From contig CAZZCB010000002.1 of assembly GCA_964652835.1 (NCBI GenBank), positions 584 to 64,583 of the forward strand: DNA of 64,000 nt, given 5' to 3'. The first letter of the stretch is position 1, and each line of letters begins with the position of its first letter. This document shows, piece by piece, positions 3,802 through 62,933 of the stretch. Below the pieces are notes generated by a model. That model saw nothing but the letters and a program-made list of their open reading frames with translations. It made no database searches and was not told where the DNA came from. This DNA comes from an uncultured Candidatus Saccharibacteria bacterium. Lineage in GTDB: Bacteria; Patescibacteriota; Minisyncoccia; Phycocordibacterales; CSBR16-119. Position numbers and translations under genes: made by a program.

Positions 3802-4023
3802 TCATTGTGTTCGGAATTTTACGCTTTTGATGTAATCACCGGCGCCTTCAAGAAGATCGCTCAGTCTGATGGAATATCTGATGTAAGCGGTCTTTAGGCG
3901 CTCTAACCTGGATTTCCTCCTTTTGTCACTTGGCGTGAGTAGCCAGTGAGCTACGAACGCAGTCCCCATAATGCCGAGCATTACGAAGGCTGTGTCAATG
4001 ATACCGAATTCTTCCATGGGCAA
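3802..4023 (-). CDS. Hypothetical small membrane protein.
   Basis: 73-aa ORF with one hydrophobic helix, in a higher-GC intergenic block between uvrB and uvrA. Confidence 0.25.
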   Translation of the reverse strand: MPMEEFGIIDTAFVMLGIMGTAFVAHWLLTPSDKRRKSRLERLKTAYIRYSIRLSDLLEGAGDYIKSVKFRTQ

Positions 4024-4218
4024 GCTGGTTTAGGTTGTTGGTAAAAAGAACAGTCGAGTGGATAGAGTAACCCAGAAATGATATTTTGGCAAGTGGGGAA
4101 AAATGCACTAAATATAATTACAAAAAAGGTCTTATCAGGAGCTCTTAATTGTGTTATAGTCTCTATATAAACCCCAAAGGAGTTCCGGAGGGGGATTTAT
4201 CGTATTTATATATATTCT

Positions 4219-6867
4219 ATGAAAAAACAAGAATTCGAAGCTGGGAAGATTGTGGTTAAGGGTGCAAAGACTCACAATCTTAAAAATGTAAGCGTTGAAA
4301 TGCCACGAAATAAAATGGTGGTTTTTACTGGTCTTTCTGGTTCTGGTAAATCTTCTCTTGCTTTCGATACTATTTTTGCTGAAGGCCAAAGAAGATACGT
4401 TGAATCTCTTTCTTCTTATGCACGTCAGTTTCTTTCTCAAATGCCAAAACCAGACGTGGATGAAATCACAGGACTTTCTCCGGCTATTTCTATCGACCAA
4501 AAATCACGTTCGAACAACCCGCGTTCAACTGTGGCGACAATAACAGAAATCTACGATTATCTGCGTGTTCTTTATGCGCGTGTTGCCAGACCTTACAGTC
4601 CGATTTCAGGAAAAGAAATTAAAAAACTTTCAAACCAAGAAATCTCAGAATTTGTAAAAAACAAAATTAGAAGTTTAAAAAACTCTCCAAATAAAAAAGC
4701 GGTGATGGGTGTGGAGTACACAGAAGATTCTGTGCATATTTTCTCTCCAGTTGTTCGTGGACGAAAAGGCGAGTATTACCAAATGCTTTACGATTTCCTT
4801 GGCAAAGGATATTCAAAAGTTCGTGTGGACGGAGCGATAAAAAACCTACGCGACTCTATCGATTTATCAAAAAACAAAAAACACGAAATAGATTTGCTTG
4901 TAGATTCTTTTTCTTTTGGCGAAGCGCTGAACAGTACAGAAGATTTTGATATGCGACTTTCAGAAGCCATCGAGCGGGCGATCACAGAGTCAGATGGATT
5001 TGTACGTATTGTTGTTTCTGATTTCCATAACAAAGAAGAGGACAGAGAAAATATTTTAATGTCAGCAAAACTTATTTGCCCTGACGACGGTTATACTTTT
5101 CCAGAAATAGAGCCAAGACTTTTTTCTTTCAACTCACCATACGGAGCGTGTCCAGACTGTAACGGACTAGGAACTAAAAACTTTTTTGGTGATGAAGTTT
5201 GTGATACTTGTCACGGCGACAGACTCCGAGAAGAAGCTCTAAATGTTTTCTTGGGCGACCGAGAAAAAGGGATGAACATAGTAAAGTTCACAAATCAGTC
5301 TATTAAAGAAGCATATGATTTTATTACAAAAATAAAATTTACTAAAAAAGAAAAAGAAATCTCTATTTCTGTTTTGAAAGAAATTGAAGACAGGCTTCTT
5401 TTTATGCTTAACGTGGGACTCGACTATTTAACTCTAAACAGAAAAGCAAACACTCTTTCTGGTGGAGAATCTCAACGTATCAGACTTGCTTCACAGCTGG
5501 GGTCTCGTCTCGTGGGCGCTCTTTACGTACTCGACGAGCCGACTATTGGTCTTCACCAAAGAGACAACGACAAACTAATAAAAACCTTAGAAGACCTAAG
5601 AGATCTTGGAAATACTATAATCGTGGTTGAACACGATGAAGATACTATTTACGCGTCTGACTATATTGTCGACATCGGTCCGAAAGCTGGAGTTCATGGC
5701 GGGGAGATCGTCGTAGCAGATTATCTTGATAAACTTTTATCAGGAAAAGAAAATAAAACAAACTCACGAACAATAGCGTATCTTCGGGAAGAAGAAATTA
5801 TTCCTCTGCCTGAAAGTCGAAGAGATGCGAATAAAGGCTGGATAAAAATAAAAGGTGGAAAAATCTTTAACATAAAAAATATAAATGTTGAGATTCCGCT
5901 CGGCCGGATGACAGCCATAACTGGAGTTTCAGGATCTGGAAAATCTTCTTTCCTTTACGAGATTTTGCATAAAAACCTCCAAGCTCGTTTTGAAAGAAAA
6001 TACAGAAGCGCAAAAACTTTTAACTGCGCCGAATTTTCTGGAACAGAAAATCTAACACGCGCGATACTTATCGATCAGTCACCGATAGGTAGAACTCCGC
6101 GTTCGAATATTGCTACTTATACAGGAGCTTGGAGTCATATTCGTGATATGTTCGCTGCGACAGACGAGGCACGTTTCCGTGGCTTTAAAGCAAATAGATT
6201 TTCTTTTAACGTAAAAGGTGGAAGATGTGAAGCCTGTGAAGGAAAAGGTCTTCAGTCTGTGGAGATGCACTTTTTGCCGACAGTTTATGTGACTTGTGAT
6301 GTTTGTAATGGAAAAAGATTCGACAAAGAAACTCTAAAAGTAAAATACAAAGGTAAAAATGTTTACGATGTTTTGCGAATGACAGTCGAAGAAGGTTTGG
6401 AATTTTTTAATGACATTCCAGCTATTTACGACAGACTTAAAACCCTGTCAGATGTCGGACTCGCATATGTCGAGATTGGTCAACCGGCGACGACTCTTTC
6501 TGGTGGAGAAGCTCAACGTGTAAAAATATCTTCAGAACTTTATCGCCCAATGACAGAGCGAACTATTTACCTACTAGACGAGCCGACGGTTGGACTTCAC
6601 TATGATGACGTGGCGAATTTGATTTCAGTTTTAGATAAATTGGTTTATAAAGGAAATACAGTTGTGGTTATCGAGCACAACTTGGATCTTATAAAAGTCG
6701 TTGACTATATAGTAGACCTTGGACCTGAGGGAGGTGAAAATGGTGGAAAAATTATGGCAAAGGGAACTCCAGAAGAAGTTGCCGATAATGAAAAATCTCA
6801 CACTGGAACATATCTTCGAAAAACTTTGATTAAAACAAAAAGAGCGATGAAAAAAATTTCGAAGTAA
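4219..6867 (+). CDS. uvrA: Excinuclease ABC subunit A (UvrA).
   Basis: 882 aa. Two ABC ATPase modules ([10 protein letters not shown] and GVSGSGKSS Walker A, LSGGE signatures) and CxxC zinc-finger pairs. Confidence 0.95.
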
Positions 6868-53209: not shown

Positions 53210-53476
53210 ATGGCACCAATAGGAGGAATTTCAATGATGTTAAGTTTTATTATAATAATGATTGAAATGCTTATTAAAAAAATAAGTAAGGTTTTTAATT
53301 TTAAAAAAATAAATTATAAACAAAGTAGAAGTTTAGGATCTTTCTATTCTGTATTTATAGTTATTATTTTTGTTACTACGATCGGTTTACAGGTGAGACT
53401 AATTATAATAGAGTCATTAAAAAATAATAATTTTATTGTTTTGGCGGAAATGTATAATACTTTGTCAAATAATTAA
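53210..53476 (+). CDS. Hypothetical small membrane protein (very AT-rich, questionable).
   Basis: 88-aa ORF with hydrophobic segments; extreme AT content. Confidence 0.2.
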   Translation: MAPIGGISMMLSFIIIMIEMLIKKISKVFNFKKINYKQSRSLGSFYSVFIVIIFVTTIGLQVRLIIIESLKNNNFIVLAEMYNTLSNN

Positions 53477-53523: not shown

Positions 53524-53676
53524 TATGGCAAAAAGAATGAGTCAGGATGTGAAGCCTCAGAACGCAAATCCAAGAAAGACAAAAAAGCGTTTGGCTGTTA
53601 AAAAGGCAATGCTCGCAGCAAAGAAAGATAAAAAGATGAGTGTATATAAAAGAGAAAGAGCGGCAAAGAAAAAATA
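53524..53676 (+). CDS. Small lysine-rich basic protein (50 aa), not in the ORF track.
   Basis: Translates to MAKRMSQDVKPQNANPRKTKKRLAVKKAMLAAKKDKKMSVYKREKAAKKK. A second 21-aa MAKGQQRSNKEAKKPKKPKAK ORF at 53711-53776 has a similar upstream sequence and is followed by the terminator at 53784-53819. Confidence 0.3.
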
Positions 53677-53783
53677 AGATTTATTATTAAAATATTTTTT
53701 TAAAAAATATATGGCAAAGGGTCAACAAAGAAGTAATAAAGAAGCTAAGAAACCAAAAAAGCCAAAAGCAAAGTAGTGGATAA

Positions 53784-53896: not shown

Positions 53897-54469
53897 ATGG
53901 CAGAATTTAAAAGAAGTGGTGGATACGGAGATAAAAATAGAGGCGGAGGCGGATTTAAAAGAGGTGGTGATAGACCATCATCTTTCGGAGGGCGACCTTC
54001 TTTTGGCTCTAAATTTGGAGGAAGAAGCGACGGACCAAAAACTATGCACAAAGCAATTTGCGCAGGTTGCGGAAAAACTTGTGAAGTTCCTTTTAAACCA
54101 AATGGACAAAAGCCAGTTTTCTGTAATGACTGTTTCGGAGATCAGCGAGATGAAAATAAAGGAGGTTCTGAAAACAAATACGAAAAGAGAAATTTCAGTG
54201 AGCCAAGATTTCCGAAAGCTGCTCGTCCAGAAAGAGACTATGTTAAGCCAGCTACTTTAGGTTCTGATTTAAAGAAAGAGATTGATTCTCTAAACGCCAA
54301 GCTTGATAAAATAATAGACATGATGAAGCAAGGTATCAAACCAAAGTCACCTGAAAAAGAAAGAGATATTCCAGCGCTTCTAGCTGACATTGAAAGCACA
54401 GAGGGAAAATCAAAAAAGAAATCAACTAAAAAAGTTTCTGCTAAAAAAGCTAGTAAGAAAAAGAAGTAA
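53897..54469 (+). CDS. Gly/Arg-rich (RGG-like) protein with a C4 zinc ribbon and a Lys-rich tail; putative nucleic-acid-binding protein.
   Basis: N-terminal 'GGYGDKNRGGGGFKRGGDRPSSFGGRPSFGSKFGGRSDG', 'CAGCGKTCEVPFKPNGQKPVFCNDCF' (CxxC...CxxC), C-terminal 'KSKKKSTKKVSAKKASKKKK'. Followed by the terminator at 54490-54526. Confidence 0.6.
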   Translation: MAEFKRSGGYGDKNRGGGGFKRGGDRPSSFGGRPSFGSKFGGRSDGPKTMHKAICAGCGKTCEVPFKPNGQKPVFCNDCFGDQRDENKGGSENKYEKRNFSEPRFPKAARPERDYVKPATLGSDLKKEIDSLNAKLDKIIDMMKQGIKPKSPEKERDIPALLADIESTEGKSKKKSTKKVSAKKASKKKK

Positions 54470-57161: not shown

Positions 57162-57566
57162 ATGAAGAAAGTGGCAGAAGAAGCGTTTTTTGTCGGACCT
57201 CGCACCTTGTGGAACGAAATCCTGGACTCAGGTAACTCTGAGACCAGGATTTCCGTTGGCAACAATAACCTTCGCACTGAATATTATATGCGAAGGACTT
57301 CACATCCGAAGAAGATGGAGTGTATTCACATACTTCACTTCCCGTGGAAAAAGCATTTGGCTGAAGCGGGCTTTACTTGTGGGGACACCTGCATTGTTTC
57401 GCTCATTGAGGTTTCTAATGTGGTCGACACCCAGAACTCATCGGCTGCGATAATGGTCACTTCATTCGACCAACTTCAGGCGTATGTTCTTATCGATAAC
57501 TCTGAACAGTTCATGGAGCTGTATAAGCAACTTCGTGAGAACATGCGAACTCAGGTCGTCGTCTGA
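57162..57566 (+). CDS. Hypothetical protein (higher-GC ORFan).
   Basis: About 134 aa, followed by the GC hairpin plus T8 terminator at about 57585-57625. Confidence 0.4.
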   Translation: MKKVAEEAFFVGPRTLWNEILDSGNSETRISVGNNNLRTEYYMRRTSHPKKMECIHILHFPWKKHLAEAGFTCGDTCIVSLIEVSNVVDTQNSSAAIMVTSFDQLQAYVLIDNSEQFMELYKQLRENMRTQVVV

Positions 57567-57669
57567 TCTACCATTTTCGCCCAAGCCGCACATTCCCAGA
57601 AGGGGGTGGGCGGCTTTTTTTTGTGGATATTACTTCGCATTTAAAAATATTTTCTATATACTTATATAT

Positions 57670-58701
57670 ATGGATACAAAAATACCACCAAAATATTTTT
57701 TCTTTACTTTACTTATTTTAGCAATAGCTTTTACTTTGGTTCTGTTTAGACCATTTTTAACAGTTATAATATTATCCGCTTCGCTTGCTTTAGTCTTCAG
57801 TCCTGTCTACAAGTGGCTTCAGTCTAAGATGACTTGGCAATCAGGCTGGCTTTCTTCAGTTCTCACGATTTTACTTTTTGTTGTGATACTTTGTGGACCA
57901 CTCTTTTTTGTAGGGAAGTTAATGTTTCAACAATCAACAGACCTCTATCAGTCCCTGACATCGACCTATGATTCAAATGAGTTCTTAGAAAATTTAGAAA
58001 TAAAGATAGCTGGTTTCTTGCCAGATAGTATTGATATAGACCTGAAACAAAAAATAGCTGACGCCGCTTCTTCTATATCTGAAAACCTGGGAACACTTTT
58101 TAGTTCAACCCTGAACACTATTTTTTCTTTCTTCTTGGTAATACTTTCGATGTTCTATTTCCTAAAAGACGGAGACAGATGGAAAAGAGCGATTATATTT
58201 TTAAGTCCGCTTCCAGATACGTATGATAAAAAAGTTATTGAGAGATTAAAAAGAGCGGTTAACGGTATTATCTTTGGTTATCTTTTTATTGGGTTTGCCC
58301 AAGGCGCGCTACTGGGTCTTGGTCTTGCGATTTTTGGAGTACCAAACGCCGTCCTGTTCGGAGTTATCGCTGCGATAGCATCTCTTGTGCCAATGTTCGG
58401 AACAGGTCTTGTTGCGATACCAGTTATTTTATTTTTGTTTGCTACTGGCGACACTGCTTCTGCTGTCGGTCTTTCTATTTGGGCTGGAGTTGTTGTAGGT
58501 GCATCAGACGAAGTTCTAAGACCTCTTGTTATCGGAAACCATTTAAATATTCCTCCACTACTAATACTCTTTGCAGTTTTAGGAGGACTAGCATTTTTAG
58601 GACCTATTGGAGTTTTGATTGGTCCTCTAACACTTAGCCTACTTCACGCTCTTGTTTCTATATACAGAGATGGTGAAAAGAAAGTTGACCTTAGTGTATA
58701 A
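57670..58701 (+). CDS. AI-2E family transporter (PerM/UPF0118 permease).
   Basis: 8 TM helices with the typical topology and conserved 'FFLVILSMFYFLKDG', 'GLVAIPVILFL', 'LRPLVIGNHLNIPPLL'. Start at the internal Met after the upstream terminator. Confidence 0.8.
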   Translation: MDTKIPPKYFFFTLLILAIAFTLVLFRPFLTVIILSASLALVFSPVYKWLQSKMTWQSGWLSSVLTILLFVVILCGPLFFVGKLMFQQSTDLYQSLTSTYDSNEFLENLEIKIAGFLPDSIDIDLKQKIADAASSISENLGTLFSSTLNTIFSFFLVILSMFYFLKDGDRWKRAIIFLSPLPDTYDKKVIERLKRAVNGIIFGYLFIGFAQGALLGLGLAIFGVPNAVLFGVIAAIASLVPMFGTGLVAIPVILFLFATGDTASAVGLSIWAGVVVGASDEVLRPLVIGNHLNIPPLLILFAVLGGLAFLGPIGVLIGPLTLSLLHALVSIYRDGEKKVDLSV

Positions 58702-59276: not shown

Positions 59277-59818
59277 ACAGAAGAAAAGCCCGCGCGGAGC
59301 GCGGGCTTTTTGTATGCAATAAAGAACTCGGTGGTTGCTTGGTGTTTGGTTTCTACCATTTGATTATCGCTTGCCAGACGAGGTCTTGAACCTGTCTTAT
59401 TTGTGGCGTAGATTCTCTGGCTACTTTCTTTTTTATTGGCCTCAGTATTCCAACTCTTGGGCGTGTCGGAGTGATCACGTGTCTTCCGCTGTTTCTGCTT
59501 CTCATGGGACTTTGATTTTTTATATTCTATAACATAAAAAATAAAAAGTCATCTTATATTTTTTTAAAAAAATCATAAAAAATATTTTGAAAATATTTTT
59601 TATCTAAAATAAAAAATTAAAAATAAATTTATTTTTAAAAATAAAAAAAGTTTTGCACAGTTTTTTTATTTTGCTCTATGTTTTTTTTCAAATAAGAAGT
59701 AAAATTTTAGTAACGTTCACTTCAAACAATCTTTCCTTCAGGCTTTTGCAAAAGTTTTAAGGAGAACGTAGGTTGATATTATTATTAGTATTTAATCACG
59801 CAAGTGATCCAACTAACA

Positions 59819-59923
59819 TGGCAAAGAAAAAAGCTGCAAAAAAGAAAGTTGCTAAAAAAGTAGCAAAGAAGAAAGTTGCTAAAAAAGCAGCAAAGAAAAA
59901 AGTTGCAAAGAAGAAGCGATAAT
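59819..59923 (+). CDS. 34-aa Lys/Ala-rich repeat mini-protein (histone H1/Hc1-like tail or cationic amphipathic peptide).
   Basis: MAKKKAAKKKVAKKVAKKKVAKKAAKKKVAKKKR, preceded by an about-180-bp almost pure A/T tract and followed by the terminator at 59941-59977. Confidence 0.4.
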
Positions 59924-59940
59924 TTTATCCCACTTACACA

Positions 59941-59977
59941 AAACCCCGCATTTGCGGGGTTTTGTGTTTCTTTTTTA
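59941..59977 (+). terminator. Rho-independent terminator (AAAACCCCGC-attt-GCGGGGTTTTGTGTTTCTTTTTT).
   Basis: GC stem plus a long T-run. Confidence 0.75.
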
Positions 59978-60005
59978 CAAAGCTTTTGTTTGATATAATG
60001 GGCGC

Positions 60006-60494
60006 ATGGAAACATTTAAATTAATTAGAAATATATTTGTAGTTTTATTAGCGCTCGGTTTTACTTTTCTTTTACTTAGTTATTTAAAAAATAAAGAAGT
60101 AGTGCAGGCGCCAGAAGATTCTTCAGATAAAGGAAATGAAACAGAAGTATTTTCTCTGACAAGCTTAAAAGGAGTTGAAATATTTATTGATTCGCCAAAA
60201 GAAAACACTGTTGTCTCAAGTCCTCTTAAAATAACAGGAAAAGCTCCAGGGAATTGGTTTTTTGAAGCGAGCGCGCCAGTCACGATAACAAACTGGGACG
60301 GACTGATCATCGGCGAGTCATACATAACAGCAAAAGGCGAGTGGATGACTACAGACTACGTACCCTTTGAAGGAGACCTAGAGTTTACAAATACAGAATA
60401 TGGAGATTATGGATTCCTGATTTTGCGAAAAGACAATCCATCAGGACTTCCAGAAAATGACGATGCTGTAGAGTTTAAAGTTTTATTTAAATAA
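60006..60494 (+). CDS. Gmad2-type immunoglobulin-like domain protein, membrane-anchored.
   Basis: N-terminal TM. 'SPLKITGKAPGNWFFEASAPVTITNWDGLIIGESYITAKGEWMTTDYVPFEGDLEF' matches the Gmad2 Ig-like domain pattern. Confidence 0.55.
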   Translation: METFKLIRNIFVVLLALGFTFLLLSYLKNKEVVQAPEDSSDKGNETEVFSLTSLKGVEIFIDSPKENTVVSSPLKITGKAPGNWFFEASAPVTITNWDGLIIGESYITAKGEWMTTDYVPFEGDLEFTNTEYGDYGFLILRKDNPSGLPENDDAVEFKVLFK

Positions 60495-60512: not shown

Positions 60513-60917
60513 CTAAGGGTCTTCTCTGTTTCCCGTGCTTAAACCCGGATCCATCTTTTTGAGTGTGGTCCACGACTTTAATTTAAAGTCGTATTTATAT
60601 TTTGCGCCGGGCGTCTTCACTACGAAGAATTTGGGCCCGGCGCTTTCTATTCTCATCTTTTCTTTTCCCAGGTCGTAGTCCTTATTCAAAAGACATCCGT
60701 GTGTACTCTCGGTGTTGCTTGAGAGGATAAAGATGTCACCACCTTTGTTTTTTGGGCATTTTATATGGCGGAGTATCCCTTCGCCAGGGATTACGTACAA
60801 GCGCTCTTTGCTTTTAGGGCAGAAGCGCCCTTCTTCGGGTATTAAAAAGTCGCAGCTTTGAGCATTTGCCCAGGTTGTGATGCAAATCGTCGCGGAGAGT
60901 AGGAAGATGTTTTTCAT
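60513..60917 (-). CDS. Hypothetical secreted Cys-containing protein.
   Basis: Signal peptide 'MKNIFLLSATICITTWANA'. 134 aa; converges on the bidirectional hairpin at about 60505-60530. Confidence 0.45.
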   Translation of the reverse strand: MKNIFLLSATICITTWANAQSCDFLIPEEGRFCPKSKERLYVIPGEGILRHIKCPKNKGGDIFILSSNTESTHGCLLNKDYDLGKEKMRIESAGPKFFVVKTPGAKYKYDFKLKSWTTLKKMDPGLSTGNREDP

Positions 60918-61457: not shown

Positions 61458-61532
61458 TATTAAGAAAAAATACACATTTTTTCAAAAAGTGTGTATTTTT
61501 TCTTTAAAGACTTAAATGCTATAATACATTTT

Positions 61533-62933
61533 ATGTTAGATGCAATATCAAAAAAAATAGATTTTAAAAAAAATAAATACATATTACTAGGAGCTGCTTT
61601 CGTACTGCTACTTATTACTATAATCGGCGGTAATAAAAAAGAAGATCCAAGTCTTATTAGAAGTGGTGTTACTAGAGGAGATGTAAATTCTGTAATCAGT
61701 CTTTCAGGGAAAGTTGAGTCATCAAACGACGTATCACTTCGTTTCAATACAAGCGGAACTATTTCAAATGTTTACGTACAGGAAGGTCAGGCGGTGAAAG
61801 AAGGAGACAGACTTATGAGTCTAGATAACAGGTCTTTAGAAGCAGACTTGCTTAAAGCTACGGCAAACCTAGAACTTCAAAGAGCTGAGACTCGTGTTTC
61901 TAATGCAGAGCTGGACAGAGCAGTAGAAAGCGCTTATATAGAACTTCTAAACAATGACCTTCAGGCATATCCAAAAGATGAAGATGAGGACTACGACGTT
62001 GTTGTCCCTGTTGTTTCTGGTTCTTACACTGGTAAAAAAGAAGGAGTCTATAATATAGACATCTACGGATCAGCTGCATCTTCTGGTATTTCTTTTAGAT
62101 ATTCTGGGCTTGAACCTCAAGATACTGAAACTGTAAATCTTTATTCTATTTCAAAGCTTGGTAACCTAGGGCTTTATCTTCAGTTTGATGCAGACAGTAA
62201 CTACAGAAGTACTGAGTGGATTATTCCTATTCCTAATACAAGAAGTTCAACATATGCGACAGTGCTAAACAATTACAAAGAAGCTTTGGCGAGTCGTGAT
62301 GCAGGTGACTCTTCAAACGTATCTATAGAAATATCAAATGCAAAAATAAAACAAGCACAGGCGGAAATCGCTAGAATACAAGCTGACATAAGTGAAAGAG
62401 TTCTGCGAGCACCTTTTGACGGAACTGTTTCTTTTATCGGTCCACAAAAAGGGGAAATAGCTAGCACGACAGAAACAGCTATTTCTCTGATTTCTCCAGA
62501 AAGCTATGAGATTAAAATCCAAATCCCAGAAGTGGACTTGTCTCAAATACAGCAAGGTCAAGTGGCTGATATTACTCTAGACGCTTATCCAGGAGAGAAA
62601 TTTACTGGTTATGTAGTATCTATAGACCCAGCAGAGACTATTGTAGATGGAGTTTCTGTTTACGAAGCTTCTGTGTATTTTAACGAACAGGATCCTAAAA
62701 TTAAATCTGGAATGACAGCCAGTGTAAATATTTTTAGCGGTAAAAAAGAAAACGTTCTAAAAATCGGTAAGCAGTTCATAGAAAAAGATGAGATGGGAGA
62801 ATTTGTTTTAGTCTATATGGACGGCGAGCAAGTTAAAACATACATCACGACTGGGTTTGTCGGAACAGACGGATATGTAGAAGTAACTAGTGGACTTTTG
62901 GAAACAGATATTATAATCAGTAAATTCGAGTAA
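61533..62933 (+). CDS. HlyD/MFP-family periplasmic adaptor (MacA-like).
   Basis: N-terminal TM, biotin-lipoyl-like 'VISLSGKVESSNDVSLRFNTSGTISNVYVQEGQAVKEGDRLMSLD', coiled coil, beta-barrel region. Confidence 0.75.
   Translation: MLDAISKKIDFKKNKYILLGAAFVLLLITIIGGNKKEDPSLIRSGVTRGDVNSVISLSGKVESSNDVSLRFNTSGTISNVYVQEGQAVKEGDRLMSLDNRSLEADLLKATANLELQRAETRVSNAELDRAVESAYIELLNNDLQAYPKDEDEDYDVVVPVVSGSYTGKKEGVYNIDIYGSAASSGISFRYSGLEPQDTETVNLYSISKLGNLGLYLQFDADSNYRSTEWIIPIPNTRSSTYATVLNNYKEALASRDAGDSSNVSIEISNAKIKQAQAEIARIQADISERVLRAPFDGTVSFIGPQKGEIASTTETAISLISPESYEIKIQIPEVDLSQIQQGQVADITLDAYPGEKFTGYVVSIDPAETIVDGVSVYEASVYFNEQDPKIKSGMTASVNIFSGKKENVLKIGKQFIEKDEMGEFVLVYMDGEQVKTYITTGFVGTDGYVEVTSGLLETDIIISKFE

Follow-up and report, generated by a model that had tools for sequence, protein, structure and literature searches.

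Introduction

Small stand-alone basic peptides of about 30–50 residues that condense DNA are exemplified by the protamines and by ScvA of Coxiella; the former are Arg-rich and the latter is Arg/Gln-rich, and they are tied to a developmental stage. Hc2 and the Hc2-like proteins consist of Lys-rich pentamers with Ala, Val or Thr, contain no acidic residues, vary in frame in the number of their repeats, and bind both DNA and RNA (PMC2848022), and tails of KPAA repeats bind DNA and polyphosphate granules (PMC9239181). Here, we report the analysis of a 64,000-nt stretch of DNA (hereafter the window; positions 584 to 64,583 of contig CAZZCB010000002.1) from an uncultured Candidatus Saccharibacteria bacterium, which harbors a micro-gene encoding the 34-aa Lys/Ala-repeat protein MAKKKAAKKKVAKKVAKKKVAKKAAKKKVAKKKR. 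This product contains 19 Lys, 1 Arg, 9 Ala and 4 Val and no acidic residue (59% basic residues, pI 11.7, 3.78 kDa). Based on its sequence and on analogy, we propose, with evenly balanced confidence, that this micro-protein is a minimal stand-alone polyanion-binding protein of the H1-tail/Hc2-like kind, expressed from a conserved promoter and leader.

Like Hc2 (hctB) and the Hc2-like/BpH1 proteins of Bordetella, Burkholderia and Herminiimonas, the micro-protein is composed of short consecutive Lys-rich units with Ala, Val and Thr. As in Hc2, its repeats are devoid of Asp and Glu, its charge is evenly spread, and units are gained or lost in frame (24–37 aa among relatives); the DNA and RNA binding of Hc2 is the activity that, by analogy, we propose for it. 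Hc2, however, comprises 165–237 aa with 36-aa super-repeats, a non-repeat C-terminal domain and two positive residues in every five, whereas the micro-protein is 24–37 aa in whole, is made of 4–5-residue units with 2–3 Lys each, and has no flanking domain. A protein of about 150–240 aa with non-repeat flanks, as expected of an Hc2, was not found at the locus, where the ATG fixes the length at 34 aa, and the Pfam models HC2 (PF07382) and Hc1 (PF07432) gave no hmmscan match at E ≤ 1, in a search whose composition correction suppresses such sequences. Neither the dimerisation domain of Hc1 nor the winged helix of linker histone H1 (PF00538) was present: the product has no residues outside the repeat and no Pfam match. 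The H1 tail, the KPAA repeats of AlgP and PhaF, the tails of HupB and HupS, and DdbA are, as the micro-protein, Lys/Ala-rich low-complexity polycations without acidic residues. Such H1-like tails are known to bind DNA without sequence specificity, and AlgP binds polyphosphate as well (PMC9239181). In contrast to these tails, which are Pro-rich, disordered and joined to a folded domain for specificity or dimerisation, the micro-protein is Pro-free, predicted to be helical, and alone; an arrangement of KPAA-type repeats on an N-terminal helical domain, as in AlgP and PhaF, was not found, there being no Pro and no additional domain. It resembles the protamines and ScvA in being a small stand-alone basic peptide but is Lys/Ala-rich, not Arg-rich. 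Taken together, membership in an Hc2/H1-like family is not supported by the sequence, given the lack of a profile match, of a flanking domain and of proline and the five- to ten-fold smaller size, and the resemblance is probably one of kind and convergent. The micro-protein would represent a new, minimal, stand-alone form of bacterial H1-like Lys/Ala polycations, and we infer its function from sequence and analogy.

Results

Conservation and coding signature of the Lys/Ala micro-gene

Since profile methods are nearly blind to such a sequence, the status of the gene was judged by synteny and DNA comparison. Exact look-ups retrieved three near-identical contigs (L001–L003). A metagenome scan with the Gmad2-domain protein encoded downstream (60006–60494) yielded 80 loci, and the five closest of them having upstream sequence all carried a 30–33-aa Lys/Ala ORF (open reading frame) at the same position. 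A genome scan with a 20-mer of the conserved upstream region afforded five metagenome-assembled genomes (MAGs) with the unit, titled Candidatus Paceibacterota or "uncultured Candidatus Saccharibacteria", plus one archaeal contig (L114, Woesearchaeota), which was rejected as a carrier of the unit, its 20-mer match being due to chance. A Gmad2 protein search and ten contig look-ups added further lineages. In total, the micro-gene was found in 16 distinct lineages (MAGs titled Paceibacterota or Patescibacteria), with products of 24–37 aa. Across these lineages it lies directly upstream of the Gmad2-domain gene; every Gmad2-homologue locus with enough upstream DNA has it, and loci truncated by the contig end show its 3′ half. 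The organism belongs to the Candidate Phyla Radiation (CPR), the group in which a search had originally been advised, as the titles of the related MAGs (Candidatus Paceibacterota or Patescibacteria) indicate.

At the DNA level, the coding sequence is a 27-nt unit (9 residues) repeated in tandem, with 3.4 copies and 87% matches. The reading frame, the ATG, the stop position and the terminator are kept in the 16 lineages, and the length of the gene differs between lineages by whole codons only. Eleven copies are exactly 30 codons long; in these, 5, 7 and 19 nucleotide columns vary at the first, second and third codon positions, respectively; 12 codon columns showed synonymous changes only, 7 showed amino-acid changes (within A/V/T/G or K/R) and 12 were invariant, and the stop was TAA or TAG at the identical position. 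Lys codons were exchanged exclusively between AAA and AAG. The share of AAG among the Lys codons of the micro-gene is about 30–65% and mostly near half, compared with 24% genome-wide (AAA 76%). In seven lineages the longest A-run is 6, versus about 9.8 expected from the codon frequencies of the genome (P about 0.01 for each lineage, the lineages not being independent), and it is 6–8 across all 16. This placement of AAG fits selection against slippage-prone poly(A), hence for faithful expression of the frame.

Judged from this comparison, 59818–59922 is a gene and not a chance ORF. The coordinates and translation originally given for a 34-aa Lys/Ala ORF with a terminator directly after it were borne out, and the coding substitution pattern in 16 lineages upholds the proposal of a genuine stand-alone mini-protein gene with its own terminator; absence of the repeat from relatives, which had been named as the sign of a chance ORF, was not what we found. 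The antisense 76-aa ORF had rightly been discounted: it is stop-free because it is the codon-for-codon complement of AAR and GCN codons, and its first positions would be the variable third positions of the sense strand. In one Paceibacterota MAG (ABC1.149; L116, oriented 3820–4430), 1-nt homopolymer deletions break the micro-gene and the Gmad2 gene alike; the reading of this copy as a pseudogene was rejected, and a long-read assembly error is the most likely explanation on sequence grounds.

In the terminator, a stem of 14 bp, 8 of them G-C, is capped by the 4-nt loop AUUU. Among 8 sequences, 11 of 11 one-sided changes retain pairing through G-U wobble, and do so in the plus-sense RNA only. 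Plus-strand transcription of the micro-gene is thus supported by the sequence of the terminator, which is clearer evidence of strand than the leader hairpins described below.

Start codon and translation signals

Gene callers were split between a 34-aa product starting at the ATG and a 49-aa product starting at TTG 59773, which is preceded by AGGAG. In three of the seven lineages checked (L037, L112 and L113), the TTG frame is out of frame or stopped. Because the frame hits a stop in these lineages, the comparison indicates that ATG 59818 is the true start. The 49-aa start with AGGAG as a Shine-Dalgarno sequence was rejected, as its frame is closed in the three lineages and AGGAG is paired in hairpin 1; AGGAG forms the 3′ arm of the hairpin and is not a ribosome-binding site in any obvious way. 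Indeed, a Shine-Dalgarno sequence at proper spacing was found at none of the 47 ORF starts inspected in the window, nor before the ATG of the micro-gene. Many genes of the window have an extended −10 element, TGnTATAAT, 6–14 nt before their ATG, which implies that leaderless or near-leaderless mRNAs may be widespread in this genome. The Gmad2 gene provides an example, with TGATATAAT at 59991–59999 and its ATG at 60006; the conserved TGnTATAAT ends 6 nt before the ATG. Translation of the micro-gene presumably begins, as in other genes of the genome, without a Shine-Dalgarno sequence, at an unstructured A-rich ATG.

The conserved upstream region

Conservation sets in at about 59637 (AAAAATAAAAAAAG-TTTTGCACAG...) and extends to the ATG in all 16 lineages. 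Neither this conserved block nor the pairing of AGGAG within a hairpin figured in the original description. The mean pairwise DNA identity among them is 87% for the upstream 178 nt, 82% for the coding sequence of the micro-gene and 69% for that of Gmad2. In a seven-lineage comparison, the upstream 178 nt were 91% identical, the upstream gene encoding a 178-aa protein 71% and the distal A/T tract 59%, and the Gmad2 proteins shared 50% to 72% identity with the window copy. Two of the near-identical contigs (L001 and L002) showed no difference from the window over about 375 nt, from the conserved upstream block through the micro-gene (59560–59935); their flanks differ visibly, with a handful of substitutions at the end of the upstream 178-aa gene and a replaced small gene on the minus strand. 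The stretch without differences is in line with gene conversion, with a recent sweep or with purifying selection of great strength.

Three promoter candidates were recognized in this region (Table 1). In P1, a −35-like TTGCAC (59653–59658, within GTTTTGCACAGTTTT) is followed by an 18-nt spacer and a −10-like TATGTT (59677–59682, within GCTCTATG); both hexamers are imperfect and vary between lineages (TTACAC or TCCCAC; TATGCA or TATACT). The hexamer TAAAAT has no good −35 hexamer 16–18 nt upstream. The third candidate, TGATATTAT, which reads TGACATTAT in L130 and TGAAATTAT in L132, is of the extended −10 type used by the genome. The leader between the candidate promoters and the ATG had been described as short; it is probably not, since about 105–130 highly conserved nucleotides lie in between.

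The leader contains two predicted hairpins. Hairpin 1 folds in 16 of 16 lineages (−9.5 to −12.3 kcal/mol), surviving several indels via register shifts, and it is not a DNA palindrome because it contains three invariant G-U pairs. Hairpin 2 also folds in all 16, its loop being GCAA or GUAA in 14 of them, and its closing pair A-U is replaced by G-C in three (L122, L124 and L129). By formal counting over the 16 sequences, 96.7% of the cells of both hairpins are paired. An RNA structure of the leader is therefore plausible from the sequence, and the G-U pairs and the GNRA loop favour hairpins that act as RNA. If so, at least some transcripts would begin upstream of 59732 and carry a leader of about 105–130 nt.

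A scan of the whole window with Rfam 15 brought only two tRNAs to threshold, and a permissive scan of 59480–60010 gave only sub-threshold matches, all of them within the distal A/T tract or overlapping the stem-loop of the terminator, with none on the leader; no described RNA family is matched by the upstream element. We also rejected a conserved ORF within the leader, since indels disrupt its frame in L037 and L113. Other copies of the leader motifs were not found in the window, and the leader 20-mer was absent from the viral contigs.

Table 1. Positions of the features at the Lys/Ala micro-gene locus
Feature	Position in the window	Strand	Remarks
Divergent gene, 50-aa basic protein	59353..59505	-	Across the A/T tract from the Lys/Ala gene
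Distal A/T-rich tract	59520..59636	.	GC 4–14% in 100-nt windows; separates two divergent transcription units
Promoter-like site ATGACT-17-TAGAAT	59524..59552	-	Consensus scan; about 18 nt upstream of the minus-strand ATG 59505
Candidate promoter P1 with UP-like element	59637..59689	+	A-run AAAAATAAAAAAAG, then GTTTTGCACAGTTTT and GCTCTATG
TAAAAT, −10-like hexamer, alternative promoter candidate	59700..59705	+	Invariant in 16/16 sequences
Predicted leader hairpin 1	59732..59765	+	Two-tier stem of 7 + 7 bp, loop UGCA; AAGGAG in the 3′ arm
TGATATTAT, extended −10-like, possible second promoter	59774..59782	+	Nearly invariant; overlaps TTG 59773
Predicted leader hairpin 2	59795..59808	+	5-bp stem AUCAC/GUGAU, GNRA loop GCAA; ends 9 nt before the ATG
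Lys/Ala micro-gene, 34 aa	59818..59922	+	ATG 59818; TAA 59920–59922; conservation and coding signature
Intrinsic terminator of the micro-gene	59936..59977	+	Stem-loop 59936–59967, then TTCTTTTTT (U-run)

Properties of the product and homology searches

The products of the 16 lineages comprise 24–37 residues of (A/V/T)(A)KK(K) units with a charge of about +18 to +20; they contain no acidic or aromatic residues, and no variant contains proline. AlphaFold, run on the single sequence, predicted one helix over residues 2–33 (pLDDT 92). At 100 degrees, the hydrophobic moment amounts to 0.07, lower than the average of 0.18 for shuffled sequences, and the mean hydrophobicity is −0.6. Lys residues recur every 4.5–4.8 residues, which would place charge on every face of a helix. 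The 34-aa product has no signal peptide, no hydrophobic segment and no hydrophobic face. The original suggestion of a cationic amphipathic peptide did not hold, given the moment below that of shuffled sequences and the lysines surrounding the modelled helix, and a membrane-active amphipathic peptide is unlikely. An amphipathic cationic antimicrobial peptide was likewise rejected, for want of a large helical hydrophobic moment and of a hydrophobic face, as was a type I toxin, since it is only the non-conserved 49-aa TTG reading that includes a hydrophobic stretch.

The product had no match in Pfam-A or NCBIfam (hmmscan, E ≤ 1) or in PHROGs. A HMMER-based search of 5.8 billion proteins with the 49-aa reading returned nothing, the self-match being lost too. 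Moreover, phmmer against 1.84 billion representatives returned nothing, nor did a search of the PDB sequences, and an exact look-up of five variants in a protein cluster collection found none. This peptide and Lys/Ala micro-proteins of the CPR were found to be unreported in the literature, where the string matches belonged to unrelated proteins. Among the viral contigs (L004–L030), the pattern MAKKKAAKKK had 27 matches, almost all of them at the N-termini of unrelated larger phage proteins of 100–300 aa, one family of which begins MAKKKAAKKK(x)PPFKEVTTGQEQP; short stand-alone Lys-rich ORFs in these contigs occur in L022 (17 aa) and L026 (48 aa).

The A/T tract and the divergent gene

Between 59520 and 59700, 20 of the 181 nucleotides are G or C (11% GC, 89% A+T), and the 100-nt core of lowest GC, which begins at 59554, reaches 4% GC (96% A+T) against a mean of 38.8% GC for the window. 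The description of this interval as almost 100% A/T thus fits the core and slightly overstates the whole. The tract is the sole 180-nt stretch below 15% GC within the 64 kb. Its distal part keeps its composition in relatives (10–23% GC) but not its sequence, and the A/T-rich composition is also kept in L113 and L129, lineages without the divergent minus-strand gene. No helical phasing of A-tracts (10–11 bp) was detected in the tract, no DnaA boxes lie within about 1.2 kb of it, no cluster of them was found and box counts are at chance level, and the cumulative GC skew is monotonic, with no turn nearby. A replication origin, a DNA-unwinding element and phased curved DNA were accordingly rejected as candidates, and with them the original idea of a DNA-unwinding-like element. 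The other idea, that of an UP element, gained support from the conserved proximal end of the tract (59637–59650), which lies directly upstream of the −35-like hexamer, the position expected of an UP element. From its sequence, the tract is best read as an A/T-rich promoter-upstream region in which only the proximal 14 nt are constrained.

Across the tract, the 50-aa minus-strand ORF has fast-evolving homologues of 48–64 aa in L001, L033, L035 and L037, with the N-terminal motif HxIVPxxxKxGxLxxKK, and no family match. The gene is apparently frameshifted in L112 and absent from L113 and L129, and even in the near-identical contigs L001 and L002 a very different sequence stands in its place. A bidirectional terminator (59284–59310) is common to this ORF and the gene upstream. 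On this distribution, the divergent gene is a sharer of the A/T tract and not an obligatory partner of the Lys/Ala gene.

Genomic neighbourhood and other observations

The gene order of the clade is AI-2E transporter, 178-aa protein, (small basic gene), Lys/Ala micro-gene, Gmad2, minus-strand protein, small ORF and HlyD/YknX-type protein. The minus-strand neighbour (60513–60917) encodes 130–145 aa in the clade and ends ...WSTGNREDP, and the HlyD/YknX-type membrane-fusion protein is encoded at 61491–62933 on the plus strand; the same arrangement was seen in L117–L133. The 178-aa and 134-aa neighbouring proteins received no family assignment. In L003, a 509-nt contig (1–509), the leader, micro-gene and terminator are 99% identical to those of the window and are followed by a peptidyl-tRNA hydrolase gene (pth), not by Gmad2; there is no pth gene in the window. 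L003 might stem from another genomic context, from a second copy or from a chimeric assembly.

Elsewhere in the window, a 50-aa small basic protein (MAKRMSQDVKPQNANPRKTKKRLAVKK...) is encoded at 53525–53677 (plus strand). It is 98% identical in L111 and 92% in L032, with neighbours only about 65–70% identical, and matches no family in Pfam, NCBIfam or PHROGs. About 150–300 nt upstream of it, inside an 88-aa ORF (53210–53476), lies a stretch (53224–53371) that ranks second in A/T content within the window. The gene at 53897–54469 (plus strand) encodes a treble-clef zinc-finger protein (PF23477) that starts with a Gly/Arg-rich region and ends in the Lys-rich tail KKKSTKKVSAKKASKKKK; this low-complexity tail is joined to a folded domain, unlike the stand-alone micro-protein.

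Discussion

The composition of the micro-protein suggests how it may work. Such a peptide would be unable to form a folded domain or to enter a membrane, and polyanions would be its only plausible partners. Its most likely role would be that of a mobile polycation binding polyanions without regard to sequence, the likeliest target being chromosomal DNA, with RNA or polyphosphate also possible. By neutralising phosphate charge it would help to condense the nucleoid of a very small cell, in a mode that can be likened to that of the C-terminal tail of histone H1, chlamydial Hc2, the HupB tail and the protamines; in E. coli, the nucleoid is compacted by both Hc1 and Hc2. The gene would be driven by a conserved promoter at the edge of the A/T-rich, UP-like tract, giving a transcript with a leader of roughly 105–130 nt and two conserved hairpins. 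A regulatory site would most plausibly lie in this leader, on which the product itself, should it bind RNA, might for example exert feedback. The autoregulatory leaders of ribosomal proteins are likewise conserved structured 5′ regions before the gene of a small basic protein; no Rfam leader family matches here, and the regulatory interaction is hypothetical. A bolder version of the proposal, which we regard as tentative and rather doubtful, is that the product, as a free H1 tail or "bacterial protamine", would serve an ultra-small CPR clade as a chromatin or polyanion-coating protein and be the smallest stand-alone one in bacteria, and that the upstream element of roughly 130–180 nt would be an undescribed cis-regulatory RNA that senses free polycation or the polyanion/polyamine/Mg2+ balance and sets the level of the peptide.

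Several observations weigh against the polyanion-binding model and against the expression signals assigned to it. The detectable members of the family all belong to one narrow Paceibacteria-type clade, whereas a core chromatin protein would usually be more widespread. No homology to H1-like proteins, Hc1, Hc2 or HU and no match to a solved structure was detectable, in tests that the composition correction of HMMER leaves nearly blind. The AlphaFold helix, obtained from a single sequence of an Ala/Lys repeat, would reflect helix propensity only and is weak evidence. None of the three promoter candidates is a strong sigma-70 match, and the sequence cannot fix the transcription start. Covariation in the leader is thin, with one double-changed pair in 3 sequences, and 7 of 500 shuffles scored as high.

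The main rival is a small basic protein associated with the ribosome or with RNA, that is, a lineage-specific protein of the ribosomal-protein kind whose leader would be an autoregulatory RNA mimic. The smallest ribosomal proteins are very small and extremely basic, and the micro-protein resembles them in size and basicity; moreover, the leader is structured and more conserved than the neighbouring genes, as expected if it is bound by its own product, and the unit in L003 lies directly upstream of pth, in a translation-related neighbourhood. We nevertheless consider this explanation unlikely, since a regular Ala/Lys repeat with free variation in repeat number (24–37 aa) is atypical for a fixed rRNA pocket, no ribosomal family of Pfam or NCBIfam was matched, and the micro-gene usually has genes for a Gmad2 envelope protein and a transporter beside it rather than translation genes; the present data do not separate it from a polyanion-coating protein. 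It is also conceivable that the leader and the A-rich body act as a non-coding or dual-function RNA to which the ORF is secondary. The higher conservation of the non-coding 178 nt than of the ORF, far above that of the flanking genes (87%, 82% and 69%, as given above), would be in keeping with such an RNA, as would the conserved hairpins and a promoter-like block and terminator of its own, resembling a small RNA gene. This is improbable in view of the coding signature, namely the codon-position bias of changes, the in-frame indels, the fixed stop, the Lys-preserving substitutions and the avoidance of A-runs; furthermore, no Rfam family reached threshold, and the sub-threshold matches miss the conserved leader.

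Polylysine-like peptides can be antimicrobial, so that an exported cationic peptide acting on other cells, as an antimicrobial or in the interaction of an episymbiont with its host, also has to be weighed. Relatives keep both a gene for a HlyD-type membrane-fusion protein, some 1.5 kb downstream, and a transporter gene of the AI-2E family (57484–58701), located upstream. The peptide, however, has no signal or leader peptide, its hydrophobic moment falls below that of shuffled sequences and it has no hydrophobic face, and relatives do not conserve the hydrophobic N-terminal extension that the 49-aa reading would add. Of the neighbouring ORFs, several lack a family match and none was recognized as a processing or immunity gene; the intervening genes have their own promoters and orientations. 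Export thus appears quite improbable. The 19 Lys codons and the position of the ORF, which ends 13 nt before a strong terminator and upstream of another gene, recall the leader peptide of a lysine-codon attenuator controlling Gmad2, and weak sub-threshold Rfam matches to amino-acid operon leaders were obtained; these overlap the terminator stem-loop, though, and are far below the gathering thresholds. Gmad2, which is not lysine-related, has its own conserved TGnTATAAT and is apparently leaderless, and the A-rich ORF offers no GCGGGG-type antiterminator partner. Because the unit and Gmad2 occur in separable contexts (the unit beside pth in L003, Gmad2 without the unit in L032), an attenuator is effectively refuted and we attach hardly any probability to it. 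A chance low-complexity ORF in A-rich DNA would agree with the empty HMMER-based searches of 5.8 and 1.8 billion proteins and with the occurrence of MAKKKAAKKK at the N-terminus of many unrelated phage proteins; it is already refuted by conservation in 16 lineages, the coding pattern, the fixed start and stop and the dedicated terminator, and its probability is negligible.

CPR cells are among the smallest known, and their repertoire of nucleoid proteins is poorly described. Genes of the Lys/Ala type fall into a blind spot: composition filters hide them from profile and phmmer searches of billions of proteins, even when the query itself is in the collection, and trypsin would cut the peptide to fragments of one to three residues, which tryptic proteomics would miss. 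Because of these two effects Lys/Ala micro-genes are systematically invisible, and only synteny and comparison at the DNA level revealed this family. To our knowledge, almost nothing is known about gene regulation in this lineage, for which the upstream element, more conserved than the surrounding protein genes, is a candidate for a new regulatory RNA or promoter architecture. If a polyanion-binding role is true, a free polycation of 3.6 kDa would be a very economical means of neutralising and packing DNA, RNA or polyphosphate, and an H1-tail-like repeat would work without any folded domain.

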